Of a DNA stretch of 64,000 nucleotides, positions 7,410 through 24,317 are shown piece by piece. The first letter of the stretch is position 1. Every line of letters begins with the position of its first letter. The DNA is from Dehalococcoidia bacterium (GTDB lineage: Bacteria > Chloroflexota > Dehalococcoidia > UBA2979). The position numbers were made by a program, and so were the translations under genes. The DNA lies in the NCBI GenBank assembly GCA_020845735.1, contig JADLFF010000037.1:2615-66614 (forward strand), in the 5' to 3' direction. The notes under the pieces are model-generated. The model saw only the letters and a list, made by a program, of their open reading frames with translations, ran no database searches and was not told the origin of the DNA.

Positions 7410-7439
7410 TTGAAATGCGTATACCACTTATCATATAAT
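7410..7439 (+). promoter_or_regulatory. Near-consensus sigma70-type promoter TTGAAA-N18-TATAAT (leaderless transcript predicted)
   Basis: TTGAAA at 7410–7415 and TATAAT at 7434–7439, in an AT-rich island inside 70%-GC DNA. The -10 box overlaps the first ATG (7438); the second in-frame ATG (7453) lies about 7–8 nt past the predicted transcription start. Confidence 0.45.
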
Positions 7440-7452
7440 GGCGAGGTCGAGC

Positions 7453-8337: not shown

Positions 8338-8341
8338 TCCT

Positions 8342-9775: not shown

Positions 9776-9783
9776 TGGTGCCC

Positions 9784-9840
9784 GGGACGGTCATGGGCCC
9801 GAGCGCAGCGAGCCGGGGGCGGGGAGGCCTTGACCGTCCC
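9784..9840 (+). terminator. GC-rich hairpin (9-bp stem GGGACGGTC/GACCGTCCC, long loop) just after the stop of the T4CP-like gene
   Basis: Inverted repeat read directly from the sequence. No U-tract, as is common in high-GC actinobacteria. Confidence 0.3.
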
Positions 9841-9922
9841 CGTCCGGATTACCCTCTTTCTCGGGTGGGGAAGGCAAGACGCTGGCCGCACCCCACCGTT
9901 CCCTGCGAGCCCCGGGGCGCTC

Positions 9923-9953
9923 GATTTGGTATACTGCATATACATTTGTTGGT
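9923..9953 (+). promoter_or_regulatory. AT-rich promoter/operator-like island (TTTGGTATACTGCATATACATTTGTTGGTATGG) immediately upstream of ORF 9954
   Basis: Striking AT-rich 31-mer in GC-rich DNA. Contains TATACT (-10-like), the GTATAC palindrome and the repeated half-sites TTGGTAT. Confidence 0.4.
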
Positions 9954-10466
9954 ATGGAACGGGACCCTGAAGATCATCCGCGACCGAGCGAGCGCTCGGA
10001 ACTGATCGCTTCTCAAGAGCGGGCGCTGACCGTGGCGGTGGTCATGCTGCTCGACGCGCTCGACCGCTGCGGGGGCCACGAGGCCGGCTGTCCCGAGTGC
10101 GGCCCGGCACGGGCACTCGCCTTTGAGACGCTCGCCTCCAGTCCGGGGCTGACTACCGCGCAGGAGCGGAAACCCGAACGTCTGCAGATCCGCGGGCGCG
10201 CGGGGGCGGCACCGGCTTTTGGGAGCACCCGGCGTGGCGCGGCAGTGGCGCGCTTCCCGCTTGCCGTGCACGACCAGACGGGTACGACGACGTGGCACAC
10301 CGTGGTGGCGTTCGGGGATCGAGCCGAGCGGCTGCGCGGCGCGGTCGGACGTGGAGATGCGCTCGAGGTCGTGGGCTACTTCCATGAGCGAGCCGTCCGC
10401 GCGCGCGGGGGTCGGCCCCGCCAGGTCCGTGAGCTCTACGCGGCGGCGGTGCGGCCGCTAGTGTGA
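9954..10466 (+). CDS. Hypothetical protein with C-terminal SSB-like OB-fold (ssDNA-binding-like)
   Basis: C-terminal ARFPLAVHDQTGTTTWHTVVAFGDRAERL...GDALEVVGYFHER...RPRQVRELYAAAVRP resembles the SSB core (RFSLAV...WHRVV.FGKLAE...G..V.VEG.L). The N-terminal half has no recognisable domain. Confidence 0.35.
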   Translation: MERDPEDHPRPSERSELIASQERALTVAVVMLLDALDRCGGHEAGCPECGPARALAFETLASSPGLTTAQERKPERLQIRGRAGAAPAFGSTRRGAAVARFPLAVHDQTGTTTWHTVVAFGDRAERLRGAVGRGDALEVVGYFHERAVRARGGRPRQVRELYAAAVRPLV

Positions 10467-10469
10467 CCG

Positions 10470-11138
10470 ATTGGTGCCCGTCAGGCACCGCCATCGTTCG
10501 CGACCGAGCGATCGGCCCGGCGGTGCTGTTCGCGACCGTCGCCACACCCGGAACGGGTGCCCGCGCGGAGCGCCTCTTCCTGCCTGCCGAGGGGGTCAAG
10601 GGGGAATCGGCAGGTGGTCGGCCCCCCGCCGGGGGGTGCCCTCTCGCCGCCGCGATGGCAGCACGTCGGATGAGTACAAACAGTGCTCAGTGGAGAGACA
10701 ACGTGGATGCAGAGGCGAGAGGGCGGGGGGAGTGGGCGGCAACGCCGCAGGCGTTAGGAGCGAGCTCCGGGCTGCCCACTCCCCCCGCCCGCAGGGCACC
10801 ATCCGAGGCCCAGCCTCGGACATCCCCCTTGCTTCTGTCCGTCAGGACCATCCGGCGGGTCGCGCCGACTAGGGTGTCGACTTCTAGTCGAGACTCTAGT
10901 CGGTCGGGGGGCGGTTCGGTGTTCCCCGCAACCTCCCTTCTCCTCTTGCTTTTGCATTGTCCCGGCTGGGTCTTCTTTCAATGAGTATGTTTCGTCTGTG
11001 TATTCTTCCGCACCGTCGCACGCGCGGATCAGCCCGTCGTCATCCGCCGATTCGAACCGTGCGGAAGTCGCGATTCCCGACTTCTGGACGTCGTGATTGC
11101 CGACATCTGGATGTCAAGAAATACGACATCAGCCTGGG
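10470..11138. other. About 670-bp non-coding region rich in inverted and direct repeats between convergent genes (candidate oriT / origin / ncRNA locus of the mobile-element-like module)
   Basis: 17-bp perfect stem 10721–10737 / 10774–10790 with a nested hairpin AACGCC-gcag-GGCGTT (10741–10755). Palindrome cluster CCGACTAG...GTCGAC...CTAGTCGG at 10865–10903. Two 16-bp palindromic sites CCGACTTCTGGACGTCG (11078–11093) and CCGACATCTGGATGTC (11100–11115) spaced 22 bp, plus a third half-site at 11123–11130. Track ORFs here are low-complexity and on both strands. Confidence 0.45.
10473..10489 (+). terminator. Stem-loop GGTGCC-cgtca-GGCACC 7 nt after the ssb-like stop
   Basis: Perfect 6-bp GC-rich inverted repeat directly downstream of the TGA at 10464–10466. 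Confidence 0.3.
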
Positions 11139-11489
11139 TCAGCGGTTGGGCGTGCTTTGAACGCGGAAGCGGAGGGTGTAGCGGTTCGTCTTGCCGAGGC
11201 CCAATCGCTTGACCTGCACGAAGCCGGCGCGTTCGAGTTGATGGATGAAGGCGACCACGCTCTGACGGCTCACACCGATGTCGCGCGCGAGGGTCTCTTG
11301 CCCGGGGAAGCAGAAGTCGTTGTGCCAGGCGTAGGAAAGGAACATCGCGTAGGTGAGCTTGGCGCCCATGCTCAGGCTGCTGCTGCGCAGAATGAAGTTC
11401 GGGACCTGAGTGAACCCCTCAGCGAGAACCGGGTCGTGCGCCTCGAGCACGATCGTGCGCTCGCGGAGCAGGTCGCCGATCGACTTCAC
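11139..11489 (-). CDS. Winged helix-turn-helix protein (phage/plasmid replication-initiator RepA_N/DnaD-like HTH)
   Basis: GFTQVPNFILRS...AKLTYAMFLSYAWH...CFPGQETLARDIGVSRQSVVAFIHQLERAGFV is the typical RepA_N-like wHTH pattern. GTG start; GTGA overlap with the upstream gene. Confidence 0.5.
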   Translation of the reverse strand: MKSIGDLLRERTIVLEAHDPVLAEGFTQVPNFILRSSSLSMGAKLTYAMFLSYAWHNDFCFPGQETLARDIGVSRQSVVAFIHQLERAGFVQVKRLGLGKTNRYTLRFRVQSTPNR

Positions 11490-11995
11490 GATCGGCCCTC
11501 CTCGTCGAGCACCTCGGTGGTCGCCGACCCGCGCACGAGCGTGCGGTAGACGACCGACTCTTCCCAGGCGCTCTCACAGTCGGCGCGGAGGAGGTCGAGC
11601 GCAACCTGAACGAGCGCGTTCGCAGTGATCCTGGCGCCGTAGCGCTCCTCCAGCTCGAGCTTGAGGTGGCTCATCCAGCGGGCTTGATCGACGTAGATGT
11701 CGTGGGAGTAGCGACGCGCGCGACGTGGCGTGGTGGCGCTGGGCGTGGCCTGACCCGTTCCAAGCTCCGGGCGTACGGGCGCACCGGCGTTCGGACCCAC
11801 GCCCGCACGAGTGCTCGAGGGTGCGGGCGTTCCAGCGAGCGAGGCAGCACGTCCACGGGTGAGCGTCGAGCCCAGTCTGGGTGCGGGCGAGCCTTCGACT
11901 GCCGGTTCCGTCGGTGATGGCTGGCTGAAGAGCCGTTGTTCGCGTCCCGGCGTCTGCGCGCTGAGCTTGAGGCCGGAGAAAACGCTATCGGACAT
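11486..11995 (-). CDS. Hypothetical protein (start trimmed to MSDSVF, preceded by a GGAGG RBS)
   Basis: The track ORF runs to 12205, but its first 70 residues are R/S-rich shadow sequence. ATG at 11995 has GGAGG 7 nt upstream. No recognisable domain. Confidence 0.3.
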   Translation of the reverse strand: MSDSVFSGLKLSAQTPGREQRLFSQPSPTEPAVEGSPAPRLGSTLTRGRAASLAGTPAPSSTRAGVGPNAGAPVRPELGTGQATPSATTPRRARRYSHDIYVDQARWMSHLKLELEERYGARITANALVQVALDLLRADCESAWEESVVYRTLVRGSATTEVLDEEGRS

Positions 11996-12839
11996 CGGCG
12001 GCCTCCTTCCTCGCGAGGTTCTCGCGTCGATCGTCGGCGACGCTCTGGACGATCGCTCGGCTGACGGTTCGGGATTGCCGGTGGAACGCGAGCAGGAGCG
12101 AATTGTCGGCGAGGATGTTCGCCTCGCGCGGCGTCCCTTCGGACTGCTCGAAGATCGTCGCGACCGCGTCTCGGCTGAACGGATGGTGTCCCCCGCCCGA
12201 GGCAACCTGCCAGCGGAAGCGCAGCATCGCGTGCAGCTCGTCGAGGGACAGCCGCTCGAGCGTGGAGGCCATCACGATCCGGCTGCGGAAGTTCCGCAGC
12301 GCCGGGCGCGCGAGCGTGTTGCGGAGCTCGTCCTGTGCGAAGAGCACGAGCTGCAGAAGCTTGCTGTCGTTCGTCTCGAAGTTGATGAGCTGCCGGAGCA
12401 GTTCGAGGAGTGGGGGGCGTAGGGCCTGCGCCTCGTCAATGATGAGCACGACCGTGCGTCGCTCGGTCGCCGCGGTCGACCACAGGTGGTCCTTCAGCGT
12501 GTCGAGCGTGCCCTTGAAGCTGCGGCTCGTCCTCGGCGTGCCGAGCTCCTGCGCGATCGTGCGCAGCAGGCTGTTGGGTGTGGGGTAGTTCGGGTTGACC
12601 AGCAGCGCGGACAGGAAACCCGCGTCGAGGAACTTCTGGTGGAGCAGGCGCGCGAGCGACGACTTGCCCGTGCCGGTGTCGCCGTGCACGACGGCGAGGC
12701 CCTTGTGCGCCGCCACGACGTACGCCGTCTTCTCAAGGGCGGTGGAGTGCATCGCGGTCAGGAAGAAGTAGCGCGGTGAAGGGACCGTGGAGAACGGTTC
12801 CTCCTTCAGACCGAAGTACGCGAGATGGGGCAAATCCAT
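11985..12839 (-). CDS. ExeA/GspA-like AAA ATPase (AAA_22 family)
   Basis: N-terminus MDLPHLAYFGLKEEPFS matches the ExeA-type YLxHFGLxExPF start. Walker A GDTGTGKSSL, Walker B VLIIDEAQAL. Track start 12953 trimmed to the ATG at 12839. Confidence 0.7.
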   Translation of the reverse strand: MDLPHLAYFGLKEEPFSTVPSPRYFFLTAMHSTALEKTAYVVAAHKGLAVVHGDTGTGKSSLARLLHQKFLDAGFLSALLVNPNYPTPNSLLRTIAQELGTPRTSRSFKGTLDTLKDHLWSTAATERRTVVLIIDEAQALRPPLLELLRQLINFETNDSKLLQLVLFAQDELRNTLARPALRNFRSRIVMASTLERLSLDELHAMLRFRWQVASGGGHHPFSRDAVATIFEQSEGTPREANILADNSLLLAFHRQSRTVSRAIVQSVADDRRENLARKEAADVR

Positions 12840-12922
12840 AGGTGAGGCGCCGAACTTGGGCCAGGTCGCGGAGCGAGGGGCCAGAGTTGGCGCAAATTCA
12901 TTGTATAGCACGGACGTGATGA

Positions 12923-13192
12923 TTGCAAGAAGTCCCGTGCGCCTCGTCCACACGGGGGTGCGCGACTAGATTCGGGGCTGACGGACAGGAGCAGGCCTCG
13001 AACGAGGAGTGGATCTCGCTCTCGGAGGCGGCCGAGCGCAGCGGTCTGAGCACGAGCTACCTTCGGCGGCTCTGCCGGCGGGAGGTCATCTTCGCCCGGA
13101 AGTTCGGGCAAGACTGGCTCACGACCTGGGACGCAGTGGCCGCCTACCTCGGGGACCCCGACAAGCGGAAGCGGGGACCCCGAGCTCGATAG
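12923..13192 (+). CDS. Small helix-turn-helix DNA-binding protein (excisionase/AlpA-like)
   Basis: ISLSEAAERSGLSTSYLRRLCRREVIFARKFGQDWL is an HTH_17/Xis-like pattern. TTG start in track; true start uncertain. Confidence 0.4.
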   Translation: MQEVPCASSTRGCATRFGADGQEQASNEEWISLSEAAERSGLSTSYLRRLCRREVIFARKFGQDWLTTWDAVAAYLGDPDKRKRGPRAR

Positions 13193-13317
13193 CCACCCTT
13201 GTATTTGTTCCGACACCGGACCTAATATACGCGGGCGTTGACGAGAGGAGGGCATCCATGGTCGGGGCCGGTGGTGGCAGCTGAACGGAAGGCGGGCTGG
13301 AGCCCGCCTTCTTCGTG

Positions 13318-13869
13318 CTACCAGTCCCACAGGATCGTGAAACGCTGCCCCAGTCGTGGGGCTTGCTCCGAGTATCCGATGCACTGGCGTCGATCGTCCG
13401 TCCAGGTGGGCGGGACCAGGACTCCTTCAGGTTCGTCGAGCGTCACGACACGCGCGAGCTTGACTGGTCGCTCGGCGGGAAGCAGCACCCCGAGGTCGAG
13501 CGAGTCGGTGGGGTGATAGAGCTCGGCCTCCAGCCACCACTCCGAGGGTGACTCGAATCCGCGCTGAACGAGGCGCTCAATCGTGAACGTGTGCACATCA
13601 CCTGCTCGTTGTCGGGCGGGCAGCGCCACTGTCGAGCGCAGCCGGGGACCGATCAAGTGCCTCGCCGTGAGTTTCCCAGGGTCGACATCGTGGTCCGCAA
13701 AGGCGATCCCGTCGCCCCACCCATAGTCGAAGATTTTGTCCGCATCCTTGAGGAACTCGACCGTCTCGGTTCGTGTGTAACGCGCTCGCTCTCCTGACAG
13801 GTCGAGGAGCTCTACACGCGCTGCATACCGCAACACACGGTAGGTGAAGGATGGTCGCGGTCGGTCCAT
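13318..13869 (-). CDS. Hypothetical protein (183 aa), divergent from the second T4CP-like gene
   Basis: Coding-like composition. No recognisable motif. Confidence 0.3.
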   Translation of the reverse strand: MDRPRPSFTYRVLRYAARVELLDLSGERARYTRTETVEFLKDADKIFDYGWGDGIAFADHDVDPGKLTARHLIGPRLRSTVALPARQRAGDVHTFTIERLVQRGFESPSEWWLEAELYHPTDSLDLGVLLPAERPVKLARVVTLDEPEGVLVPPTWTDDRRQCIGYSEQAPRLGQRFTILWDW

Positions 13870-14012
13870 AGCTCATTTTACCGGTCGCGGTCAGAGCGAT
13901 TTCACTTTGGCGCGCCACGGCGGGCTGCACGGGGCCTTGACAGCCTTCCGAATCGCCTCGGTCCGCCCCGCGATCGCTACGCTCTCGCCGAGACTGTTGT
14001 CCGGGACGAGGG

Positions 14013-16217
14013 ATGCATCCGGTGGCAGACGGCAAGATTGATCTCGGAGTTGAGCTGTTCAATGGAGAACCGGTGCGGCTCGGCCTCCGTGAACGTCAGC
14101 AAGGCACCTACATCCTCGGGAAGCCCGGCACGGGCAAGACGACACTGATAGAGCGCATGGTGCTGCAGGACATCGAAGCCGGGCACGGCGTCTGCGTGCT
14201 CGATCCCCACGGTGACCTCGTCGATGGCGTACTCGTCCAGATCCCAGCGCACCGCGAGCACGATGTGATCCTGCTCGACGCCGCGGACACGGACTTCCCG
14301 TTCGGCCTCAACCTCTTCGAGTGCCGCGACCTCACCGATCGGACTCTCGTCGGCCGAATCGCCGCCCAGGCCGTGGAGGTCTTCGAGAAGCTGTGGGGCG
14401 ATATTTCGTGGGGCCCGCAGCTGGCGCAGACGCTCCGTAACAGCGCCTACACGATGATTGAGAACGTGGGGTACACGCTCCTCGAGGTGCGGCGGCTGCT
14501 ACTTGATGAGGAGTTCCGGGCGCGACTGACGGCGAACCTCACGCTCGGCCAGGTGCGTGAGTTCTGGGAGCTCGAGTACAACCCCCTTCTACGCCGCGAA
14601 CAGCAGCAGCGTGTGAGTTCCACACTGAACAAGATTGATGAGTTCCTCACGCCGGCGGTCTACCCGATCGTGGGGCTCGGACGCACCACCGTCGACTTCC
14701 GGGCCGCAATGGACGCGGGCAAAGTCGTGCTCGTGAAGCTGCCGGTGGGTGTGCTCGGGGGCGATCCGGTCGCGCTGATCGGCTCGATGATCGTCGCGCA
14801 GATATTCAACGCCGCGCTTTCGCGCCAGGAACTCGACCCCGGCGCGCGCCGCCAATTCAATCTGTTCGCCGACGAGTACCACCGATTCGCGACGCCGACC
14901 TTCGCCGAGCTCCTCGCGGAAGCGCGCAAGTACGGCCTCGCTACCTTGCTCGCTCACCAGTTTCGGGACCAGCTCGACGAGCAGAACCGCGGCGCGACGC
15001 TGACCGCGGGGAACCTCCTCGTGTTCGGCGTGGGCGGCGGCGATGCCGAGGAGCTGGCGAAGCAGTTCGACCGCACGCCGCCCCCGCCAGACGTCGTGGG
15101 GCAACGGCCGAAGCTCACCGTGAACCAACGGCCGATCGAGCACCTGGTGAGACACGGACACGACAGCGACTTCGTACGCAGGGCGGTCGCCGCCTGGGTG
15201 CAACCGCTCGCGCATCGGGTGGAGACGATGCCCTCGGGCGGGGTGGCTGCCTCGACGCTACGCGTTCCAATCGAAGGACGCACCTCACCGATCGAGGTGG
15301 AATACGTCGCCGATGGCGGTTCGCTCCGGGCCGGCGCGGCGGCGATCGACGGCTTCTTGGTCAACGTGATGGAGCGGCGACTGAACCTTGGTACTGCGGC
15401 CGAGATCAGCGCGATCGCCCACGTGATTGCGCTCTTGCGAGCGCATATCTGCTTCGCGCCAGAACTGACCTTTTACGACGTTGATTACCCGTCTGTGCTC
15501 TCGGATCCCTCGCTGGAGTTGCCAGAGGCTACATCGCGCGCGCTGCTCGCATTCTTGACAGACTGGCTTCCCGATCGGGCGGCGCACCGGAACGCCGAGA
15601 GTCACACACGCGCGGGCGTTCTCGCACACCCAGCGGCGTCGCGGCTCGTCGAGGCGAGACTCTCTCACCTGAAATGGATCGACCAGCAAGAACAGGGCAT
15701 GGCGGAGTCCGAGGCGCTCAGGAATGCGGGGCCATTCACGACCGATCTCGCTCCGTTCGTCGATGAGGAACGACGAGAACGCGCGAGGGGTCATCCACAC
15801 CGCGCGGGCACCGAAACCTACGCCGCCGCGCGGCTCGCGTGGCAGTTGCACACGCTTGCCCTGGCTCTGCTGCGGGAGCCCATCTTTGTCGACAGCGGTC
15901 AGTGGGAGCCGATCTACGACCGTCCTCGCTCCTACGCGGACGTCGAGGGCGAGATTGCGTCGCGGTTGGTGAACTTACCGAAGTACCAAGCTCGAGGACG
16001 GCTGCTCGTCGACACCAACGTGCGCGAGGTCGACGTACAGACGCCAACCTTCGAGAACAGGCAGGCGACCGAGGAAGGCATCGCGCGCGCCGAGCGAATC
16101 CGAGCTCGCTCCCGGAGGGACTACTGCCTTCCGCTCGCGCGGGTCCTCGAGATCATCGCAGCGCGCGGGCGCGACGATCCACCACAAGAATCGACGCGGC
16201 GACGGGTTCCGATCTAG
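14013..16217 (+). CDS. TrwB/TraD-like (type IV coupling protein-like) AAA ATPase, soluble, paralog 2, with about 350-aa C-terminal extension
   Basis: Walker A YILGKPGTGKTTL then VLDPHGDL. Walker B-like FNLFADEYHRF then ARKYGLATLLAHQF, collinear with paralog 1 (8342–9775). No TM segment. C-terminal 350 aa without recognisable domain. Stop codon abuts the tRNA-like repeat A. Confidence 0.65.
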   Translation: MHPVADGKIDLGVELFNGEPVRLGLRERQQGTYILGKPGTGKTTLIERMVLQDIEAGHGVCVLDPHGDLVDGVLVQIPAHREHDVILLDAADTDFPFGLNLFECRDLTDRTLVGRIAAQAVEVFEKLWGDISWGPQLAQTLRNSAYTMIENVGYTLLEVRRLLLDEEFRARLTANLTLGQVREFWELEYNPLLRREQQQRVSSTLNKIDEFLTPAVYPIVGLGRTTVDFRAAMDAGKVVLVKLPVGVLGGDPVALIGSMIVAQIFNAALSRQELDPGARRQFNLFADEYHRFATPTFAELLAEARKYGLATLLAHQFRDQLDEQNRGATLTAGNLLVFGVGGGDAEELAKQFDRTPPPPDVVGQRPKLTVNQRPIEHLVRHGHDSDFVRRAVAAWVQPLAHRVETMPSGGVAASTLRVPIEGRTSPIEVEYVADGGSLRAGAAAIDGFLVNVMERRLNLGTAAEISAIAHVIALLRAHICFAPELTFYDVDYPSVLSDPSLELPEATSRALLAFLTDWLPDRAAHRNAESHTRAGVLAHPAASRLVEARLSHLKWIDQQEQGMAESEALRNAGPFTTDLAPFVDEERRERARGHPHRAGTETYAAARLAWQLHTLALALLREPIFVDSGQWEPIYDRPRSYADVEGEIASRLVNLPKYQARGRLLVDTNVREVDVQTPTFENRQATEEGIARAERIRARSRRDYCLPLARVLEIIAARGRDDPPQESTRRRVPI

Positions 16218-16272
16218 CCTCGGGAGACTTCTAATCCGAGAGCCGGAGGTTCGAATCCTCCCGGGGGCGCCA
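16217..16272 (+). repeat. 56-nt tRNA-like mini-element, copy A (acceptor-like 5' strand, T-arm GGAGG-TTCGAAT-CCTCC, acceptor 3' strand, G, CCA)
   Basis: GGTTCGAATCC T-loop plus CGGGGGC-G-CCA 3' end. The 5' GCCTCGG can pair with the 3' CGGGGGC (one G-G mismatch). No D-arm or canonical anticodon arm could be folded. About 85% identical to copy B at 20800–20855, with boundaries exactly at nt 1 and CCA. Confidence 0.45.
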
Positions 16273-16276
16273 GTAG

Positions 16277-16486
16277 CTAGAGTGTTAGGACCCGGCGAGC
16301 CCTTGCCAGCGCCTCTTCGAGCGCCGCTGCCTCGCCAGCGATCATGTCAGCTTCTCGCTCGAGTTCGGACCAGAAACGTTCGTGGAAGCTTCGCGCGGTG
16401 TCATCTCGCCAGTGCTCCGTCGCTGTTGCCCACTCCGCCTTGATCCGGCGGGCGTCGTCGGCCAACATCTCGGCCCCCCCTCCCAA
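16277..16486 (-). CDS. Small helical protein (69 aa), last gene of the FtsK/WXG-like operon
   Basis: Start 2 nt after the upstream stop. Helical, charged (AEWATATEHWRDDTARSFHERFWSELEREADMIAGEAAALEEALA). No database-level assignment possible. Confidence 0.35.
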   Translation of the reverse strand: MGGGAEMLADDARRIKAEWATATEHWRDDTARSFHERFWSELEREADMIAGEAAALEEALARARRVLTL

Positions 16487-16488
16487 CG

Positions 16489-17103
16489 TTAGTCCCCCTT
16501 CTCGCCGCGCCCCGATTCTTCGAGGCGCTCCGACGGGTTCGGGACGCGGAACACCGCATCCCGTCCGTATTTCCCTTGGGTGCCAATGCGCTCGCCTAGC
16601 GCCCTCTCGGCGTTGATGGCGCTGGGTGCGGGAACTCCAGCCGTCGTCGACACGACGAACGACTGGTACTGCTCGATGCTGGCCATCCGAGCGAGAAGGC
16701 CGTTCTGCATGGTCGAGATTGCGTGGCTCAGATATTCACGGTGGCGGACGGCACTGGGGCGGAAGAGGCGAGCTGCCTCGTCGACGGCGTTGGCGGCTCC
16801 CTCGACCGCGGCGAGGCGAACACCTGCGCGTTGCACCTCGTGCGCGAGACCGCTGCAGTCGGGGCCCTCTCCTCCTTCGGCCGCCAGGGCCGCTCGGATG
16901 CATGCAGCGTAGGCGGCCTCTGCCCGCGCGAGCACGCCTTGCGCCAGACGCCGAGCCTGCTCAATGTCCGACTTGGTACGGTCTAGATCGTTAATAGCGT
17001 TCCGTAACCCGGCGGTCTGGCGGTCGACGACCGAGAAAAGCTGCTGCCGAAGGCGGTCCAGAGCGCCGTAGGTGACCTCAACCTGGTCAGCCATCCGTCT
17101 CAA
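16489..17103 (-). CDS. Helical protein (204 aa) with WXG100/LXG-like N-terminal region, candidate secreted substrate/effector
   Basis: ATGA-type overlap with the upstream gene. N-terminus MADQVEVTYGALDRLRQQLFSV has the WXG100/LXG-style start (x-I-x-V-x-Y-x-x-L). The remainder is helical with a distinct C-terminal tail. Confidence 0.4.
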   Translation of the reverse strand: MRRMADQVEVTYGALDRLRQQLFSVVDRQTAGLRNAINDLDRTKSDIEQARRLAQGVLARAEAAYAACIRAALAAEGGEGPDCSGLAHEVQRAGVRLAAVEGAANAVDEAARLFRPSAVRHREYLSHAISTMQNGLLARMASIEQYQSFVVSTTAGVPAPSAINAERALGERIGTQGKYGRDAVFRVPNPSERLEESGRGEKGD

Positions 17104-17375
17104 GCCTCGAGGAACGCGCGTAGGCGTTCGATGAGTCGGAGGAGATGGCTTTCGTGGTCGTCGGTAACGGCGAGATAGCGTTCGATCCCCTTCCCGACTT
17201 CCTCTAGCGCCGTACCGAATTCCGCATACTTCTGGTCGGTCCAGGTTCCTCCGAGGTTCCGCCAGTCGGCGACCATGCCCCTGTACTCGGCCTCGAGCGT
17301 GTCATCGAAACGAATCAGATGGTTGCGAAAGTCGATGAGCGCTTGGACGCTCCCCACGCCAACGCGGTCACTCAT
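17100..17375 (-). CDS. WXG100-like small helical protein (91 aa)
   Basis: Trimmed from track ORF 17100..17612 to the ATG at 17375 (GAAGGAGA RBS 5 nt upstream; ATGAGTGA overlap with the FtsK-like stop). Helix-turn-helix hairpin layout with central DWRNLGGTWTDQKYAEF. About 90–100 aa, the size of ESAT-6-like proteins. Confidence 0.4.
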   Translation of the reverse strand: MSDRVGVGSVQALIDFRNHLIRFDDTLEAEYRGMVADWRNLGGTWTDQKYAEFGTALEEVGKGIERYLAVTDDHESHLLRLIERLRAFLEA

Positions 17376-20300
17376 GCGCGTCTCCTTCAGCTGGAAGCAG
17401 GTCGTTGAGTCCGGCTGCTCCCAGCAATCGATACGGCTTGAACTTTTCCGTGCGCCCCAGCGCCCACTCTTCGTGGCGGAACAGGGCGCGGTTGTCCGCG
17501 AGCCGGCTGGCGACAGGTGAGTCGAAGAGCGAGTTGGAGTCGGCCTCGGGTACCCGGAGGGATGCCCGTAGGTCGAATCGCGACGTTCCCTGGCGGCCGA
17601 GAACGCGTTCAACGGCAGTCAGGCCATCCGTCCATGCGATCACGTGCCACCCTTGGTCCGGACCCTCGTCCGCGAGGCGTAACAAAGAGGTCGCCTCGGG
17701 TGTCTGCTGGTATGCATCGGGACCGCGGAGCTCGCGCCAGCGCTGGAGGCCAGTCACGACCAGGTAGCGAGGGCCGCGGGTTGCGTCGCTCGCGGCGAGG
17801 CGTGCATCGAGGTCCTCGAGGGCCGCGCCTAGCGCGGACCCAGCCTCGCGTGGCCCCGCGACCGAAACCTGGTTCGGGATGCGCTGCTGAAGCGCTGCCA
17901 TGACGCTGGACAGTGGACCGGTGCGTGCGAAGTCGAGGACGTAGAACGCAGCATCGGGCTGTTCGAGCGCGAGCGACACGACCACGGCTTCGAGGAGACC
18001 GTAGGCGTCAAGCTCGTCCGGGCCCGCGATCAGAAGGTTATTGCGAGGGAAGCGCTCAAAGCGTGCCGCTGTCGGCCCTTTGACTTCGACGGGTTCACCG
18101 AGGAACGCCTCGGCGGTGTCAGGGTCGGGTCGCCAAGCGCCGATCCGCAGCTCCTGCAACCTGGGATTTCCGGTCAACGAGGCCGGCGTCGTGCCCTCAA
18201 AGGTCGCGGGTGGAGGGTGTGCGCCGCCGTCACGGTCGGCGATCGCGGTGACTCTGGCCCGATGCTCGTCGCCAGGAAGTAGGGCCACGCGGATCCGGTG
18301 GTTCGCCGCGGTGTGACCAAAGTCCTCGTTGAGGATCGCCTCCCCCGGCTCTTCGAGCCGGGATGCAGCAACGTTTCCGTCTCCGAGGATTGCAGTCGAC
18401 GTCGCGTCCGAACTCTTGAACGCGACTCTTAACGGCATCTGTTCGTAGACGCGAGTAAGGTATCCCGACACGCCGGCCGGGGTTTGCGACGCCAGCAAGA
18501 CGTGGATCCCGAAGCCGCGGCCACGTCGGACCAAGTCCTCGAGAATCGCCCCGGCCTCGCGGCCGAGTTGGTCCTCGTCTGAGACGAGGACCTGGAACTC
18601 GTCCACGACCAGAAGGAGGCGAGGCATCGTGCCACCACGTGCACGGAACTCCGTGTATTGCGAGGCCCCAGCTTCTCGGAAGCGGCTCCCCCGGGCCTCG
18701 ATCTGAGCACGGAGGTCGCGAAGCACGCTGAGCGCGAACTCCCGATCGGTAGCCTGAGTAACCGCGCGAGCGTGCGGAAGCGCGAGGTAGTCGACGAACG
18801 AGACTCCTTCTTTGAGGTCAAGGAGGTAGAGGCCTAGCTCATCCGGCGAGTACCGAGACGCCAGTTGATCGATGAGGAGAAGGAGAAGGTTGGTCTTGCC
18901 TGACCCGACCATGCCGCCGACGAGGGCGTTGTGGATTGTGCCGGTGCCGAGGTGGAAGCTAGTGCTCTCGCCTTCGAGTGCCATTCCGATGGGCACCGAT
19001 AGGCCGTCGGCCGTGCTTGCGGCCCAGTCAATTGGGACAAGTACATCCGAAGAATCGAGCGCTCGGGGCCGCCCGAAGGCAGCGCGAACCCCGTCGAGCG
19101 CCGATTCGACGGTCGCTGCGTCCGGAATCTTCGACGGTACCAACGGAAAGTCCCCTAACAGGGCGCCGGGCAAATGCACGACGCCGACCTCGTTGACCTC
19201 CAAACGGCCCCACGGTCGGAAGGCATCGGCCAGCTTCATGTCGCGTGGCATTGGTGCGGCGGGGTCGAGTGTGGCTACGACGTGGAATCCTGCCCGCGGC
19301 CCGTTCCGGGCAAGGCGCGCAAGCAAATCGAGTGCCCGCTCGGTCCAGCCACCTGCAGGCAGTCTCAAGATCGCAACCAGGCGGTGCGGCTGCGCTAGCG
19401 CTGGGTTCGCTGCGTTGTACTCGTGGATCGTCGAGAAGCGCGCACCGAGCCGCGTCTGAAGCACGTCCTCACACTCCCGAGCGAGCGTCTCGAGCTCACG
19501 CTCGATTTCGTTTGAGCTCGTCAGGACGCGCTCCCCACGGATCGCGGGCGGGAGAGACAAGAAGGCGGATAAACCTTGGCCGGCGCCTACGGGATCAATC
19601 AAGGTCAGCCGAATAGCACCGGATGCGCTACCGGTGACCAGCTGGAACACGGTGGCACGAAGTAGGTCATCGCGATAAGCAGCGGGTCCGCCGTCGATGC
19701 CGAGGTGCCTTTGAGATAGCAGGAAGAACACCGCCAATGGGCCGAGGTCGTTCTGGAAGTCGATTGCTCCGATTCGTGCCGTGACCCCGTGGCGCAGAGG
19801 ATCTCCCGCAAGCGCGTCGAGCATGACGCGGATGATCGGCGGCGCACCACCCCCCAGCATCCGGACCATCTCTTCGAACGCTGCGACCGCCTCCTCGTGC
19901 CGTCCGAGTTGCGTGAGCTGGATCGCGCTGCTCATCAGAGTCCGGTCAGGCTGTTTGCGTCCTGCAACCGCAGGGTCCTGGACAGCCGCGATGACCGCAG
20001 GCGGCGGTGCAGCGACTCGAACGCCACCTTTCGCCTCAACCGCCCACGTCCCACTTAGCGAATCGTGCCAAGTGCGCTTTTCTGGGTGCCAAGCTGCCCA
20101 GACGTAGCCCAATCCGAGCGAGAGTAGGCTTAGAAATGAGGCGAGAAGCCGACCAAGCGCGCGCCCAGCACCGGGCCGATTGCCCTCTGAGTCGACTAGG
20201 CGAACGCCCACGAGCATGTGGCCCAGCGTTTGGCCACGTGCCCAGAAGAACCAGAAGTAGGCTACGAACACGACATTGCTGATGAGCTGTCGTGCTTGAT

Positions 20301-20499
20301 CGTTTTGGCCGAGGATCGCGCTGACGACTGAGATCAGGACACCGTCGATGATGTGACCGATCGCACGAGCCCAAAAGCCAGCGTAGACGCGGTCAGTCGG
20401 CGTCGCCGTTGATGGACGCACGTTCTGAGCTGCGCCGCAATGCGTGCAGAACGCCGCGCCTGCGGCAACCTCACGACTACAACTCGGGCAAGACGCCAT
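17368..20499 (-). CDS. FtsK/SpoIIIE-family ATPase with three P-loop domains (EccC/EssC-like) fused to N-terminal zinc-ribbon + RDD membrane domain
   Basis: N-terminus: CPSCSREVAAGAAFCTHCGA (Zn-ribbon), then an RDD pattern (YAGFWARAIGHIIDGVL...GQTLGHMLVGVRLVD...RTWHDSLSGTWAV). Domain 2 has canonical Walker A GGMVGSGKTNLLL and Walker B LLLVVDEFQVL. Domains 1 (VGAGQGLS) and 3 are degenerate, as in EccC D2/D3. Confidence 0.75.
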   Translation of the reverse strand: MASCPSCSREVAAGAAFCTHCGAAQNVRPSTATPTDRVYAGFWARAIGHIIDGVLISVVSAILGQNDQARQLISNVVFVAYFWFFWARGQTLGHMLVGVRLVDSEGNRPGAGRALGRLLASFLSLLSLGLGYVWAAWHPEKRTWHDSLSGTWAVEAKGGVRVAAPPPAVIAAVQDPAVAGRKQPDRTLMSSAIQLTQLGRHEEAVAAFEEMVRMLGGGAPPIIRVMLDALAGDPLRHGVTARIGAIDFQNDLGPLAVFFLLSQRHLGIDGGPAAYRDDLLRATVFQLVTGSASGAIRLTLIDPVGAGQGLSAFLSLPPAIRGERVLTSSNEIERELETLARECEDVLQTRLGARFSTIHEYNAANPALAQPHRLVAILRLPAGGWTERALDLLARLARNGPRAGFHVVATLDPAAPMPRDMKLADAFRPWGRLEVNEVGVVHLPGALLGDFPLVPSKIPDAATVESALDGVRAAFGRPRALDSSDVLVPIDWAASTADGLSVPIGMALEGESTSFHLGTGTIHNALVGGMVGSGKTNLLLLLIDQLASRYSPDELGLYLLDLKEGVSFVDYLALPHARAVTQATDREFALSVLRDLRAQIEARGSRFREAGASQYTEFRARGGTMPRLLLVVDEFQVLVSDEDQLGREAGAILEDLVRRGRGFGIHVLLASQTPAGVSGYLTRVYEQMPLRVAFKSSDATSTAILGDGNVAASRLEEPGEAILNEDFGHTAANHRIRVALLPGDEHRARVTAIADRDGGAHPPPATFEGTTPASLTGNPRLQELRIGAWRPDPDTAEAFLGEPVEVKGPTAARFERFPRNNLLIAGPDELDAYGLLEAVVVSLALEQPDAAFYVLDFARTGPLSSVMAALQQRIPNQVSVAGPREAGSALGAALEDLDARLAASDATRGPRYLVVTGLQRWRELRGPDAYQQTPEATSLLRLADEGPDQGWHVIAWTDGLTAVERVLGRQGTSRFDLRASLRVPEADSNSLFDSPVASRLADNRALFRHEEWALGRTEKFKPYRLLGAAGLNDLLPAEGDAHE

Positions 20500-20799
20500 G
20501 TCGGCAGTTATACGTGGTTGCGCGACATCGATCGAGGAAAATCCAGAAATCGATCCGGTCCGCCAAACACACCTGTTGGGAGCCCAGCCGCGGAGGCGAC
20601 CGGCGCCGGGTGAAGACTACACGCGCTACCCGGCGTGATGAAGTCCCCGCCGCGCGCTGGGCAGCAGCGCCGAGCGCGGTAGAATCCCCAGGTCCGTTGT
20701 CGTTCGGGCATGACCGGAGGACTCGTTCACCTGCCCTGCAGGCAGGGCTGCCTCATCAGATTCGGCCCGGCACCTCGAGGCGCGATTCGCGGGCGAGTT

Positions 20800-20855
20800 G
20801 CCTCGGGAGACTTCTAATCCGCAGGTCCCAGGTTCGAATCCTGGCGGGGGCGCCA
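20800..20855 (+). repeat. 56-nt tRNA-like mini-element, copy B (T-arm CCAGG-TTCGAAT-CCTGG, acceptor CGGGGGC-G-CCA)
   Basis: Same architecture as copy A. The T-stem differs from copy A by compensatory changes on both strands (GGAGG/CCTCC versus CCAGG/CCTGG). Preceded by palindrome CCCTGCAGGCAGGG (20731–20744). Confidence 0.45.
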
Positions 20856-21026
20856 GCTGTCCGACCACCCACCCCCGTCGAGGGCAGCCCAACGCGATCC
20901 CACAGGCGATCCCGACGCGCATCCCTCGCGGCCACCTCCGGCCGCGCCGAACCTGACAGCGCTTCACGGCGCCCACAAAACGCGTATATAGTCCCGAGGC
21001 ATTACGCCCGCATTCCCGGAGGGCTC

Positions 21027-21605
21027 ATGTCCCACCGCACCTGGATGACCGCAACGTTCGCGACGTGGTGCCTGCTCGTCGCAGCGTGCGGAGGCGAGAC
21101 CGCGCCCACCGTCGACAGGACCGACGTCGCCACCAAGGGCGTCACCGACAAGACCGGCTCAGGGTCGAGTTCGTCCAGCGGATCGACCGCGAGCAAGGCG
21201 GCCACCGGCAAGAAGCTCCCCGGAGGCGTGTGCCAGCTCCTCACGGTCGCCGAGGTCGAGGCCGTGGTGAAGTCGGGCCAGACGCTCACGACGGTGGAGA
21301 GTGCGCCCGATCCCACCAGCGAGCGGAGCTGCATCTTCGTGGTAGCCGGTGCGGCGCCGATCGTGGCCCTGTCGCTCCAGGGTGAGCTCGAGCCACTCGA
21401 CTGGCCCGCGATCAAGGCGCTGCCCGGGGCGAAGACCGTGTCAGCCCGGGGTGGCGAAGCCGTGTTCTGGCCGACGACCAACGTGCTGTACGTGCAGAAG
21501 AACGGCCTGGCGGTGACCGTCCAGGTCGTCGTTGCACCCAGCGGCGAGACCGTCGAGTCCGCCTCGAGCAAGCTGGCGCAGCCCATCGTCGACCGGCTGC
21601 CATGA
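21027..21605 (+). CDS. Lipoprotein (signal peptide + LVAAC lipobox), paralog 1
   Basis: MSHRTWMTATFATWCLLVAACGG lipoprotein signal, then S/T-rich linker and CQLLTVAEVEAVV core. Track ORF 20409.. trimmed to ATG 21027. Confidence 0.55.
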   Translation: MSHRTWMTATFATWCLLVAACGGETAPTVDRTDVATKGVTDKTGSGSSSSSGSTASKAATGKKLPGGVCQLLTVAEVEAVVKSGQTLTTVESAPDPTSERSCIFVVAGAAPIVALSLQGELEPLDWPAIKALPGAKTVSARGGEAVFWPTTNVLYVQKNGLAVTVQVVVAPSGETVESASSKLAQPIVDRLP

Positions 21606-21637
21606 CCCGGAGTCGCGAGTACGAGCGGGAGGTTCGA

Positions 21638-22210
21638 ATGAAGGCGATGAGCTGGCTGGTGTCCGGGGCGCTGCTGCTGCTCGCCTCGTGCGGGGGTACC
21701 GAGGTGGCACCGTCGTCCAGCGCGACGACGGCGGCCACCAGCGCCGCGAAGTCCGCATCGACGGCCGGCGCTGCTGCCACCGCGGTGAAGGCCGCCTCGA
21801 CGGCCGCGGCGACAGCCGCCGCCAAGGCCGGGGCCACCGCCGCCGACGCCTGTGCCCTGCTCACCGTCGAGGAGGTGGGCCGCGTCATGGGCGCCACCGG
21901 CGTGAAGGCCGAGGGCCAACCCGAGCTCGCGGGCGCCACGTACTGCACGTACCGCGACGCCAGCGGCAACCCGATCGTCGCCACGTCCTACCTCAAGGCC
22001 GGCGCGGCGGCGTTCAACGCCGTCTCGTCGGGGATGCAGGCCCAGTCGGGGATTGGTGACAGGGCCCAGTGGGACGACAACAGCGCGACGCTGCAGGTCC
22101 TCAAGGGCCAGACCGTCCACGCGATCACCGCCGGTGATGGCCGGATGGCCAACCCGCAGCGCCTCGATCTGGCGAAGCAGCTCGGCCAGATCGCCGCCGC
22201 GCGCCAGTAA
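21638..22210 (+). CDS. Lipoprotein (LLLLASCGG lipobox), paralog 2
   Basis: MKAMSWLVSGALLLLASCGG, then an Ala/Thr-rich linker and CALLTVEEVGRVM core, paralogous to 21027–21605. Start uncertain (21602 or 21638). Confidence 0.55.
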   Translation: MKAMSWLVSGALLLLASCGGTEVAPSSSATTAATSAAKSASTAGAAATAVKAASTAAATAAAKAGATAADACALLTVEEVGRVMGATGVKAEGQPELAGATYCTYRDASGNPIVATSYLKAGAAAFNAVSSGMQAQSGIGDRAQWDDNSATLQVLKGQTVHAITAGDGRMANPQRLDLAKQLGQIAAARQ

Positions 22211-22247
22211 CGCCCGAGGCGTTCGGGACGAGAGGAGCAGGCGCCGC

Positions 22248-24317
22248 ATGTCAGGTCTCGCTCGACTGGCAGCGGCCGGTGCGGCCGCGGCGATCGTCGC
22301 CGGGGCTGTGTACGTGCTGCTCCCGTTCGTCGCGCCCGACCCCCTCGATGGCTGCGCGATCGGTGGGCAGTTGCGCGACGCCGGGTTCTCCGACGACTTC
22401 GCGCAGATCATCTGCAGCTCGTCCACCGAGGTCTCGGCGGAGGGCGATCTGATCCGCATCGCACATCGAGTGCCCGCGCTGTCACTGCGCGAGGACACCC
22501 TCGTGGGCGTGCACCCGCAGCAGGCCGTGAGCGCGATCGACGGTCCGCGCCTCGATCTGGGATCGGGGCTGACGGGCTACGCCATCCACCATTCGGTTCA
22601 GCCGCTGCAGGGCGGCTATGACCGCTACGAGGCCATCTTCATCCCCTACGAGGGCAATCCGCCGGCCGTCATCGAGGAGTTGACGGGGCGACGGCAGAGC
22701 TCGAGGGCGGGTGGCGCGATTCCCATCGCGTTCACGCACGCCGCTGCCGAGACAGGGGGCGTGATCGTCTCGTCCGTGACGACGACCTCGGACGCGGCCG
22801 GGACCGCCGACACGAGTCCCAACCTCAACTCAGGCGGGGACGATCTTGGCAAGACCGCTCCGCGGCTGGACGACCCGAAGCTGGATGAAGTCCGCCGCGA
22901 GTTCGCCAACAACCCACAGAAGGCCGAGCTGCGCACCGCGATGACGCCCGAGGAGTCCGAGGCGCTCCGGCGCTATCTCGAGTCACCGGCGGGCCAGGAC
23001 CTGACTCGCAGGCAGGAGGCGTTCACCCGTGAGCTCGAGTCGCGGCGCGCGGCCTACGAGCTGGGACGCTACGGCGAGACCACGGAGCAGGCGGTGGAGC
23101 GCGTGATGGCCGAGCGCTCTCGCCAGTCCTCGAACCGCGCCACAGGGCGGGTCAATGTCGCCCTCTCGGGGCTGCAGGCGATCGCCGAGTGGATGCAGCA
23201 GGGACTCGACTACTTCGAGAATGACGCGGCGCTCCAGGCCGCCGAGGACTGCCACAACAACCCGACCAACCCGGTGGCTCAGAACGCCCAGCGGAATGAC
23301 CCGGAGAACTACAACCGGGCCCGCGAGCAGATCCGGGAAGCACGTTCCGAGAACAACTGGGACACGGGCGTCCGCGGGCTCGACACGGCTCGCGGGCTGG
23401 GCACGGCCGCGATCCCCGGGACCGCGGGACTCGCAGCAGGCGTGATGTCGACCGGCGCCCAGGGGACCCTGAGGCAACTGCAGCAGCAACGCACGCAGCA
23501 GGCCGTCTCGGGTGTCACCCCGTGCGATGAGCAGGCGACCGGCGGGGGCTCCAGCGCATCGAATCGAGGCCAGGGCTCGACGACTCCTCCGACGCCCACG
23601 CAGCCGACTCCTCCGCCCGGCACACCCACCGCCGAGGCCACGTCGCGCTCTCCCGGGCCGTCGGTGATCATCACGGTGACCGCGACTGCGACGGCCACCC
23701 CGCGCGCGCGGAACAGCGCCACGGTCCGTGTCGAGTACCTCCACCGTTTCGAGGGCTCCGACCACCACATCACCTACGTCGCCACCGCCGACCTCTCGAA
23801 CCTCCTCCCAATCCGGGATGCGACGGGGCGCACGATCGCCGAGTACCCCGATGTGTCGTTCCGGGGTGAGGGGGTGGGCGCCTACGATGAGCAGGGCACG
23901 GCGACTGACGGGAGCGGCGCGCGATGTGGCGTCGCACGTGATGGCTTCGTTCCGATGAAGCTCGAGGTGTGGGTGGAGAGTCGCACAGTCAACGTCCATA
24001 TTGCGGGACCCGTCCGTCGAGGCGAGATCGGCGACGTGACGTACTGTCCCCACAATGTGAGCGACGGTACCAACGCCAGCGTCTCCTGCACCTTCGAGAA
24101 CGTCGACTTCCCGCCGGCCGGTGCCTTCCCGTATCGCGCAACGGTCGGCGAGGCGTCGAGCGGCCCCGGGTTCGTCAACCAGGAGCTCTGCACCCTCGAG
24201 TTGGCGCCGCTGTTCTGGCACGACGGTCGGATCGTGACGCGTCCGCGGGAGCCCGAGGGGTTCGGCGTCGCAGCGCCGACGCAGGTACCCATCCCGGCGC
24301 AGACCCCCGGGCCCTGA
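22248..24317 (+). CDS. Large membrane-anchored hypothetical protein (N-terminal TM helix; Pro/Thr-rich linker; Cys-containing C-terminal domain)
   Basis: ATG at 22248 with GAGGAG RBS. N-terminal hydrophobic helix AAAAIVAGAVYVLLPFVA. PTPTQPTPPPGTPT linker. No recognisable catalytic motif. Confidence 0.5.
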   Translation: MSGLARLAAAGAAAAIVAGAVYVLLPFVAPDPLDGCAIGGQLRDAGFSDDFAQIICSSSTEVSAEGDLIRIAHRVPALSLREDTLVGVHPQQAVSAIDGPRLDLGSGLTGYAIHHSVQPLQGGYDRYEAIFIPYEGNPPAVIEELTGRRQSSRAGGAIPIAFTHAAAETGGVIVSSVTTTSDAAGTADTSPNLNSGGDDLGKTAPRLDDPKLDEVRREFANNPQKAELRTAMTPEESEALRRYLESPAGQDLTRRQEAFTRELESRRAAYELGRYGETTEQAVERVMAERSRQSSNRATGRVNVALSGLQAIAEWMQQGLDYFENDAALQAAEDCHNNPTNPVAQNAQRNDPENYNRAREQIREARSENNWDTGVRGLDTARGLGTAAIPGTAGLAAGVMSTGAQGTLRQLQQQRTQQAVSGVTPCDEQATGGGSSASNRGQGSTTPPTPTQPTPPPGTPTAEATSRSPGPSVIITVTATATATPRARNSATVRVEYLHRFEGSDHHITYVATADLSNLLPIRDATGRTIAEYPDVSFRGEGVGAYDEQGTATDGSGARCGVARDGFVPMKLEVWVESRTVNVHIAGPVRRGEIGDVTYCPHNVSDGTNASVSCTFENVDFPPAGAFPYRATVGEASSGPGFVNQELCTLELAPLFWHDGRIVTRPREPEGFGVAAPTQVPIPAQTPGP

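Follow-up and report, generated by a model that had tools for sequence, protein, structure and literature searches.

Four closely packed genes in a 64,000-nucleotide stretch of a Dehalococcoidia genome (contig JADLFF010000037.1, positions 2,615–66,614; the window hereafter) encode a large FtsK/SpoIIIE-family ATPase and three small helical proteins, s1, s2 and s3, and they raise the question of what such a set does when nothing else of a Type VII secretion system (T7SS) accompanies it. Reviews treat Type VII secretion as a feature of the Actinomycetota and Bacillota that needs several membrane partners (abstract of PMC13492133). Among the window proteins scanned with Pfam there is no EssA, EssB, EsaA, YukD, EccB, EccD, EccE or MycP, as a first-pass annotation of this DNA had stated. 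We conclude that the locus very probably belongs to a family of stand-alone, mobile modules built from WXG100-type proteins and an EssC-like ATPase. The odds that the module exports protein are about even, and the reading we favour, with a probability of roughly 0.55, is that of a stand-alone, mobile WXG100/EssC-like ATPase module acting as a minimal Type VII-like protein-export cassette.

Organization of the four-gene cassette

The four genes are minus-strand open reading frames (ORFs) that occupy positions 16277–20499 of the window in the order ATPase–s1–s2–s3. The ATPase gene (17368–20499) encodes 1043 amino acids (aa) comprising a Zn-ribbon, an RDD domain, a linker and three tandem FtsK-type modules. 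The s1 product (17100–17375; 91 aa) is a helical hairpin of the WXG100 superfamily within the HP0062 branch, s2 (16489–17103; 204 aa from a TTG codon) is a long antiparallel helical hairpin with a flexible tail of ~50 aa, and s3 (16277–16486; 69 aa) is a short WXG100-related helical protein. Translation of s2 more likely begins at an ATG at 17094, giving a predicted 201 aa as in its orthologues; s3 begins with TTG, preceded by AAGGGGGA. The proposal that these genes form a coupled operon is borne out: the ATPase and s1 genes overlap by 8 nt, s1 and s2 by 4 nt, and 2 nt separate s2 from s3, and the codon-position GC of all four genes is coding-like, with third-position GC (GC3) of 0.72–0.75 against second-position values of 0.39–0.53. 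The flanking host genes have a higher GC3 (0.85–0.95), and the lower value of the quartet fits horizontal acquisition. Overall GC content is ~65% from position 1 to about 21,000 of the window and 70–73% further right.

A non-coding leader of ~300 nt (20500–20799, minus strand) lies upstream of the ATPase gene. The motif TATAAC, 7 nt before the ATPase ATG, is kept in the window (20500–20515) and in an 83%-identical cassette, L087 (440–452), and as neither has a Shine–Dalgarno sequence upstream of this ATG, the transcript may be leaderless. No match to a sigma-70 consensus promoter for the operon is present on the minus strand, and terminator-like sites occur only at background level.

The ATPase

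A database protein from a Dehalococcoidia metagenome-assembled genome, annotated as 'RDD family protein', is 100% identical to the window ATPase. Pfam reports a strong RDD match (PF06271; residues 76–149, 64.4 bits against a cut-off of 24.1, 1.8e-17) and a single FtsK_SpoIIIE domain (residues 505–672, 74 bits, 1.1e-20). The zinc ribbon at the N-terminus (residues 1–24; 20428–20499, minus strand) has the pattern CxxC...CxxC and matches Pfam Zn_Ribbon_1 with 22.4 bits (E=1e-4), below the cut-off of 25. It is followed by the RDD membrane domain (residues ~36–150; 20050–20394, minus strand), with two or three hydrophobic helices; segments 46–64 and 118–136 are above threshold, and a third, aromatic-rich segment at ~72–90 is seen by eye and falls below it. 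For the ATPase modules to be cytoplasmic, an even number of spans is needed in this region.

The three modules that follow, all encoded on the minus strand, are Da (residues ~238–480; 19060–19788), Db (~490–745; 18265–19032) and Dc (~790–1030; 17410–18132). Db is the sole predicted catalytic module, with GGMVGSGKT (527–535) as Walker A and VVDEFQ (631–636) as Walker B, and in an alignment with 14 homologues G529, G534, K535 and D633-E634-F635-Q636 are invariant in this middle module only. Da is a degenerate FtsK-type P-loop domain that has neither Walker motif, and Dc is likewise degenerate; their Walker A sites are replaced by DGGPAAYRD and AGPDELDAY, respectively. Comparison of alignment slices with hhalign relates Dc to Db with 97% probability (E=3.8e-11), Da to Dc with 96% and Da to Db with 64%, and the degenerate–canonical–degenerate order of P-loop modules that had been suggested is upheld. 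We note a 23-nt inverted repeat inside the ATPase gene (18172–18194 / 19176–19198), 96% complementary and with arms 981 nt apart, one arm lying just 5' of module Dc and the other within module Da.

The closest relatives of the ATPase are T7SS proteins, both in sequence and in predicted structure. A profile search of the PDB returns EccC (3.8e-53), EccC5 (1e-40) and YukB (5e-34) ahead of FtsK (8e-18) and TcpA (4e-12). Given an AlphaFold2 (AF2) model, whose confidence score (pLDDT) is 80–95 over residues ~250–1040 and low in the RDD part, Foldseek ranks first the cytoplasmic part of T. curvata EccC with its three ATPase domains (4nh0; E=2.7e-30, 914 aligned columns). EccC and EssC D2–D3 structures (EssC 4lya) come next, and then the FtsK motor and TcpA. 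The top NCBIfam models are EccCa, EccCb and EssC, with scores far below the equivalog cut-offs in every case: 100.1 bits against 509 and 76.5 bits against 347 for the EccC models TIGR03924 and TIGR03925, and 69 bits against 778 for the EssC model TIGR03928. The EccC/EssC arrangement proposed in the first-pass annotation therefore stands as to the triple-module type but not as to the pattern of degeneracy, as canonical EssC carries Walker motifs on both D1 and D2 (PMC11090510). Db aligns best to the first Walker-bearing ATPase domain of 4nh0, which in our reading is EccC D1, and by analogy with EccC D3 we regard Dc as a candidate substrate-recognition module.

The small proteins

Taken alone, s1 and s3 of the window score below the gathering cut-off of 27.3 bits of Pfam WXG100 (PF06013), with 15.9 bits (E=0.016) and 16.2 bits (E=0.013), respectively. 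A family profile of seven s1 sequences, searched against the PDB, matches HP0062 (3fx7/2gts) at 1e-13 and EsxB (4j41 and related entries) at 9e-5, and the s1 orthologues in loci L003, L004 and L006 have an unmarked precomputed Pfam WXG100 match. The hairpin turn of s1 reads W45-T-D47 in place of W-x-G, with W45 and D47 invariant in the family alignment; that of s3 reads W26-R-D28, and W19, W26, D28 and F34 are invariant among its relatives. The s3 and s1 families are related by hhalign with a probability of 87% (E=3.8e-6). We assign s1 and s3, on these sequence matches, to a divergent branch of the WXG100 superfamily.

The s2 protein is of a different kind. Its AF2 model consists of two antiparallel helices (9–71 and 81–153), with pLDDT above 90 for residues ~10–150, and it has no match in Pfam and no significant one in the PDB sequence search; Foldseek with this model returns generic long hairpins only, at E 0.01 or worse. 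WXG100/LXG-style N-termini had been attributed to all three small proteins, and this holds for s1 and, less strongly, for s3, but not for s2, for which neither Pfam nor the PDB profile search nor the fold search gives an LXG or WXG100 signal; a role for s2 as an LXG or polymorphic-toxin protein is rejected on the same grounds. In most loci s2 consists of a conserved domain of ~155 aa plus a short tail, and those listed among its 165 database homologues are nearly all 165–185 aa long and have no Pfam domain. Longer C-termini are present in about 7 of 65 loci. Four long variants were tested, and three of them, those of L007 (E=1.8e-6), L009 (5e-15) and L020 (0.017, a weak match), from Tepidisphaeraceae, Phycisphaerales and Kuenenia loci, have an Imm33-like domain at the end; in L003 and L006 the long C-terminus of s2 combines a transmembrane (TM) segment with unknown domains. 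One would not expect a domain of immunity type on a presumed secretion substrate.

The cassette in other genomes

A scan of reference genomes, with one genome per species, identifies at least 141 relatives of the ATPase. The best 80 of these show 30–37% identity over all three modules; most come from Planctomycetota and Verrucomicrobiota, and Acidobacteriota, Bacteroidota and other groups contribute a few. Partner genes were sought by searching hidden Markov models (HMMs) of s1, the s2 N-domain and s3 against six-frame ORFs of the loci, and were counted over the 66 loci whose upstream flank measured 1.8 kb or more. The quartet recurs in this search for gene order, of the kind that the first-pass annotation had proposed: all three partners lie on the same strand in the order s1–s2–s3–ATPase in 53 loci, and at least one partner is present in 62. 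The s3 gene, usually directly upstream of the ATPase gene, is found in 62 loci, and the s2 N-domain, encoded between s1 and s3, in 59. Clustering of all neighbouring ORFs reveals no further conserved cassette gene, such as one for a membrane partner, in more than five of the 66 loci, in agreement with the idea of a minimal, self-contained unit. The order of the window, ATPase–s1–s2–s3, is shared by 50–83%-identical relatives (P0004, L001, L005 and L087), and in distant relatives such as L004 the three small genes are upstream of the ATPase gene. A profile search for the ATPase yields at least 150 clusters at 50% identity, all above 1075 bits and mostly of ~1300 aa. The module family is thus large, strictly four-gene and phylogenetically broad.

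How the ATPases are anchored, and which extra domains they carry, differs between members. Two or three N-terminal hydrophobic segments are present in 61 of 74 full-length ATPases from the genome loci, and in P0010 and P0013–P0015 two TM helices come after a long N-terminal region. Within the ATPase family an RDD domain occurs in two protein clusters only, P0001 and P0002, and the fusion of RDD to an FtsK-type ATPase, singled out earlier as unusual, is indeed rare. P0003–P0009 lack TM helices; a gene of 662 or 698 aa is translationally coupled upstream in P0004 and P0007, and in L005 (P0007) its product has a predicted TM helix. These upstream genes and the 425-aa genes downstream in P0004 and L005 were considered as core components and set aside as clade-specific, those of L005 having no Pfam match. 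Fusion partners of the ATPase core include WD40 propellers (P0011 and P0012), an Hsp70 fragment (P0102) and a Ser/Thr kinase, which is N-terminal in P0126 and C-terminal in P0153. Together with the neighbouring genes, these fusions point to a recurring link of the ATPase family with signalling or chaperone components.

Two further copies lie on plasmids. On Caballeronia plasmid pSBC2-5 the genes are ordered VWA – 'WXG100 family type VII secretion target' – 436 aa – 113 aa – 76 aa – FtsK/SpoIIIE, followed downstream by CARF – VWA – PP2C – STK – AAA; the ATPase matches the family core HMM at 4e-146 (32% identity by tblastn, 2e-58) and its s1 protein matches at 3e-24. A Helicobacter plasmid carries s1 (1.4e-20) – HNH endonuclease – SMI1/KNR4 (SUKH) – 77 aa – ATPase (1.5e-85). 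Homology of the window s2 and s3 to the middle and small proteins of these two plasmids is not supported, the hhalign probabilities being 0.3–11%.

Several individual loci have further features. A Rhodococcus plasmid copy (L104) lies after Hsp70–TPR–GrpE genes. Toxin–antitoxin pairs are present between s3 and the ATPase gene in L003 (5907–7976) and L006 (6505–7976), the insert types being a small upstream ORF with PemK and HEPN with a nucleotidyltransferase. The L006 contig also contains a separate T7SSb-like cluster (15115–19261) of YukD, a canonical WXG100 gene and a CHAP-domain protein, and a WD40-type WXG100/EssC-like cassette and a T7SSb-like system may therefore coexist there.

Flanking repeats and genomic setting

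The quartet is bracketed by a 57-nt direct repeat, 86% identical, with plus-strand copies at 16217–16273 (DR1) and 20800–20856 (DR2). In it, a loop of sequence CUUCUAA resembles the anticodon loop of tRNA-Arg(UCU); a perfect T-arm and the 3' acceptor strand with GCCA are also present, and there is no D-arm. In the T-stem, two compensatory base pairs differ between DR1 and DR2 (GGAGG/CCTCC versus CCAGG/CCTGG). A complete tRNA or tmRNA at these positions was considered and rejected: ARAGORN detects none, and Rfam RF00005 gives no match at its gathering score of 29 bits, DR1 reaching 16.6 and DR2 17.7 bits in a permissive scan. The repeats had been described as tRNA-like, and the direct repeat is real; its copies are not tRNA genes, but 3' fragments resembling tRNA-Arg(UCU) of the attR type. 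DR1 is an internal att-type junction at the s3 end of the cassette and DR2 the right boundary of a low-GC island.

An exact 22-mer of the repeat has no match in metagenomes. A looser pattern identifies 16 metagenomic contigs (L088–L103) in which the fragment is preceded by GAGAC; in these, similarity extends only from the GAGAC/anticodon-loop region to the CCA, the DNA upstream being unrelated, and no intact tRNA is found among the 16 matches. Fragments of the DR1/DR2 type are, as judged by these alignments, attR-type remnants of integrative elements, and the matches suggest a family of such elements sharing this attachment site. The L087 cassette has the same tRNA fragment at the same end, and its leader of ~300 nt aligns with that of the window into the fragment. 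There is no integrase between DR1 and DR2 and no intact tRNA in the window.

High-GC3 host genes lie to the right of DR2, where a lipoprotein-like ORF starts at 21028. To the left are Type I restriction–modification (R-M) genes hsdR/S/M (73–5662), followed by genes for Fic (5693–6799, minus strand), a helix-turn-helix (HTH) protein (6809–7141, minus strand), a Replic_Relax protein (7438–8337), a TraD/TraG-like ATPase (8264–9775), an HTH_36 protein (11139–11573, minus strand), an AAA_22/TIGR03015-like ATPase (11985–12953, minus strand) and a second TraD/TrwB-like ATPase (14013–16217) whose stop codon abuts DR1. This low-GC island, positions 1–16216 and beyond the left window end, looks like an integrative mobilisable element with defence cargo. 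The simplest reading of the region is a tandem arrangement of the island, DR1, the 4.5-kb integrase-less cassette, DR2 and host DNA, in which case the integrase and an intact tRNA would be expected beyond the left end of the window.

Elsewhere in the window, a second low-GC islet (52495–56845; 62–65% GC) contains an IS1595-family transposase gene (52495–53469), an N6_N4 DNA methylase gene (53967–55676, minus strand) and an overlapping ORF of 390 aa (55673–56845, minus strand) that has no Pfam match; it may represent a transposon-borne Type II R-M pair. Four imperfect 39-nt repeats, with 67–74% identity to the reference copy, are located at 21731–21844, around which one codon phase has a GC content of 0.90–0.95, and the gene call at about 21600–24300 is ambiguous.

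A possible export mechanism

The export reading can be set out as a series of steps. The Zn-ribbon–RDD region supplies the membrane part of the window ATPase, as two or three TM helices do in most relatives. The ATPase would hexamerise in the cytoplasmic membrane, as FtsK/EccC-family proteins do, and s1, s3 and the s2 hairpin would assemble into an elongated helical bundle. The degenerate C-terminal module Dc could then dock this bundle, as EccC D3 docks EsxB, and ATP hydrolysis by the central module would drive it through a pore formed by the membrane helices of the ATPase itself; the C-terminal domain that s2 carries in other lineages would be exported along with it. The role of the cargo is probably in inter-microbial or anti-mobile-element conflict. 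The cassette sits at the edge of a low-GC island with R-M and mobilisation genes, and the HNH nuclease and SUKH immunity pair in the middle position of the Helicobacter plasmid copy fits a cargo role there.

In its strongest form this proposal makes the four genes a complete, self-sufficient translocase and a third, much simpler class of Type VII-like system. The membrane segment of the EssC-like hexamer (RDD here, two TM helices elsewhere) would be the whole channel and the s1/s2/s3 bundle the export signal and cargo carrier, in a system moving horizontally as a 4–5 kb cassette and widespread in Planctomycetota, Verrucomicrobiota, Chloroflexota and Helicobacter, outside the Actinomycetota and Bacillota. 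We offer this form tentatively, and think it rather more apt to fail than to hold.

Several observations weigh against export. The argument for secretion is one of homology with T7SS components. Certain relatives lack TM helices altogether, with WD40, Ser/Thr kinase, Hsp70 or coiled-coil regions in their stead, which is hard to square with a self-sufficient translocon; TM-less ATPases are said to require 'a different mechanism' (PMC11090510). Most hosts belong to the diderm PVC phyla, in which crossing the inner membrane alone would not release protein. The s2 protein usually has no effector domain, and the Imm33-like ends of three of the four long variants are of immunity rather than toxin type. 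Homology of s2 to the Helicobacter and Caballeronia middle proteins is not demonstrable by hhalign. Finally, were all three hydrophobic segments of the RDD region to span the membrane, the ATPase would face outward.

Alternative interpretations

Among the alternatives, the one that survives best is an intracellular conflict or defence module from which nothing is exported. The EssC-like hexamer would be a cytoplasmic or membrane-proximal ATP-driven sensor or remodeller, with the WXG100-type hairpins and s2 as adaptors or regulators and with abortive infection or the control of associated nucleases as the output. Such a role would suit the TM-less members fused to WD40, Ser/Thr kinase or Hsp70, and the Imm33-like end of some s2 proteins; it would also suit the position of the Caballeronia plasmid copy within a VWA–CARF–PP2C–STK–AAA operon, which is a TerY-P/CoCoNuT context (PMC11090510), and that of the Rhodococcus copy after Hsp70–TPR–GrpE. 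We nonetheless judge it less likely than export, as most members are membrane-anchored, by two or three TM segments or, in the window, by RDD, and for the ATPase as well as for s1 the closest homologues that have been characterised are parts of secretion systems. The Type I R-M and Fic neighbours in the window, PycTM with DUF3323/DUF2399 in L001, and the toxin–antitoxin pairs inside the cassette in L003 and L006 are all in keeping with defence, but no defence gene recurs beside the cassette in the 66 genome loci. A known anti-phage system was considered and rejected: for the small proteins PADLOC offers no model, and its matches to the ATPase are generic P-loop ones only (SspH, mad8, HerA).

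Far less probable is a DNA translocase of the TraB, FtsK or TcpA type that moves the surrounding integrative element, with the small ORFs as accessory DNA-binding proteins or unrelated. The ATPase does belong to the FtsK/SpoIIIE family, the adjacent island encodes a Replic_Relax protein and two TraD/VirD4-like ATPases, att-type repeats bracket the cassette, and there is a weak NCBIfam match to CedB, involved in DNA import, at 3.4e-7 and far below cut-off. Placement in the TraB/TraSA translocase family, against which the first-pass annotation had weighed its own proposal, is nevertheless not what the searches give, since EccC, EssC and YukB rank well above FtsK and TcpA in both sequence and structure. 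The chain moreover ends directly after Dc, leaving no room for a gamma/winged-HTH DNA-recognition domain, two of the three modules are predicted from their motifs to be catalytically dead, the conserved partners are of WXG100 type, and no relaxase or conjugation gene accompanies the cassette in the 66 other loci. The idea that the ATPase alone is a genuine gene and the small ORFs are spurious, prompted by the many long spurious ORFs of high-GC DNA and by the sub-threshold WXG100 scores of s1 and s3, is already refuted by the conservation of s1, s2 and s3 as proteins in the same order, at 20–65% identity across phyla, to which the coding-type GC pattern, the coupled junctions and the high pLDDT of s2 can be added.

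Significance and comparison with known systems

The suggestion that the system is previously undescribed does not hold, and the module class itself has already been predicted by comparative genomics. Bell et al. (2024, eLife, section 10; PMC11090510) describe EssC homologues with three ATPase domains, of which the central one alone is predicted to be active, and with a long N-terminal coiled coil, from Type III-A CoCoNuT and TerY-P loci, where they are co-encoded with a coiled-coil–nuclease protein and a pair of WXG100 proteins, one of which lacks WxG; the operon was interpreted by Anantharaman et al. (2012), as cited there, as a likely mobile stand-alone secretion system. WxG and FtsK have been presented as a minimal T7SS set (PMC4978471). 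HP0062 is an ESAT-6-like protein with WRD in its turn whose gene clusters with an FtsK/SpoIIIE gene, according to the summary of Jang et al. (2009) in PMC3397514, where its function is given as unknown; the clustering is also noted in PMC4978471. No experimental study of any member of the module was found in the literature searched. What sets the window copy apart is its Zn-ribbon–RDD anchor, a gene order that begins with the ATPase, a host from the Chloroflexota, and the place of the cassette between two tRNA-Arg-type attR-like fragments without an integrase.

With a large four-gene family in hand, the question of a minimal T7SS-type translocon is directly testable. If export is true, the cassette would define the minimal requirements of such a translocon in a system small enough for reconstitution, and if the module instead acts within the cell, it would reveal a non-secretory role of WXG100 proteins in conflict systems that would bear on how CoCoNuT and TerY-P loci are read. 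The RDD domain in place of two TM helices is a natural domain swap for asking what the membrane part must do, and in the monoderm host of the window copy export over one membrane would suffice. The position of the cassette between two att-type tRNA fragments documents its mode of travel.

LXG toxins and their Lap targeting factors in T7SSb systems involve two small helical proteins encoded with a protein that has a longer helical N-terminal domain. The two small and one longer helical proteins of the cassette resemble this set and suggest a three-part pre-secretion bundle, but s2 has no LXG match, and no toxin domain in the window or in most relatives. Among T7SSs more generally, EccC, EssC and YukB, which act with EsxA and EsxB, are the nearest relatives of the ATPase in sequence and structure, and the cassette has in common with T7SSa/b a membrane-anchored multi-module FtsK-type ATPase and adjoining genes for small WXG100 hairpins. 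It differs in that the ATPase has no FHA domain and one Walker-bearing module, where EssC has D1 and D2, and in the W-x-D rather than W-x-G turn of its small proteins. The setting resembles that of tandem tRNA/tmRNA genomic islands, in that repeats derived from the 3' part of a tRNA bound a low-GC segment and two junctions lie in tandem, although here the repeats enclose no integrase and the window holds no intact tRNA.

HP0062 and HP0066 of H. pylori are paralogues, and among solved structures that of HP0062, whose turn is of the same WRD type, comes closest to s1. The Helicobacter plasmid copy differs from the window cassette in its diderm proteobacterial host and in its middle gene, an HNH endonuclease followed by a SUKH-type immunity gene, while keeping the layout s1 – middle protein – small protein – ATPase. 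The module of Anantharaman et al. and Bell et al. is the nearest counterpart, to which the matches of the Caballeronia ATPase and s1 establish direct homology in sequence. The window ATPase has the Zn-ribbon–RDD anchor instead of an N-terminal coiled coil, a feature that is variable in the family rather than core; its gene stands first, s2 has no counterpart of the nuclease domain of the CoCoNuT loci, both small WXG100-type proteins have the W-x-D turn, and the neighbours include no VWA, kinase, phosphatase or McrBC-type genes. Common to both are three ATPase domains with the central one predicted to be active, two small WXG100-type proteins and a coiled-coil protein (here s2) encoded with the ATPase, and the character of a mobile, self-contained unit.

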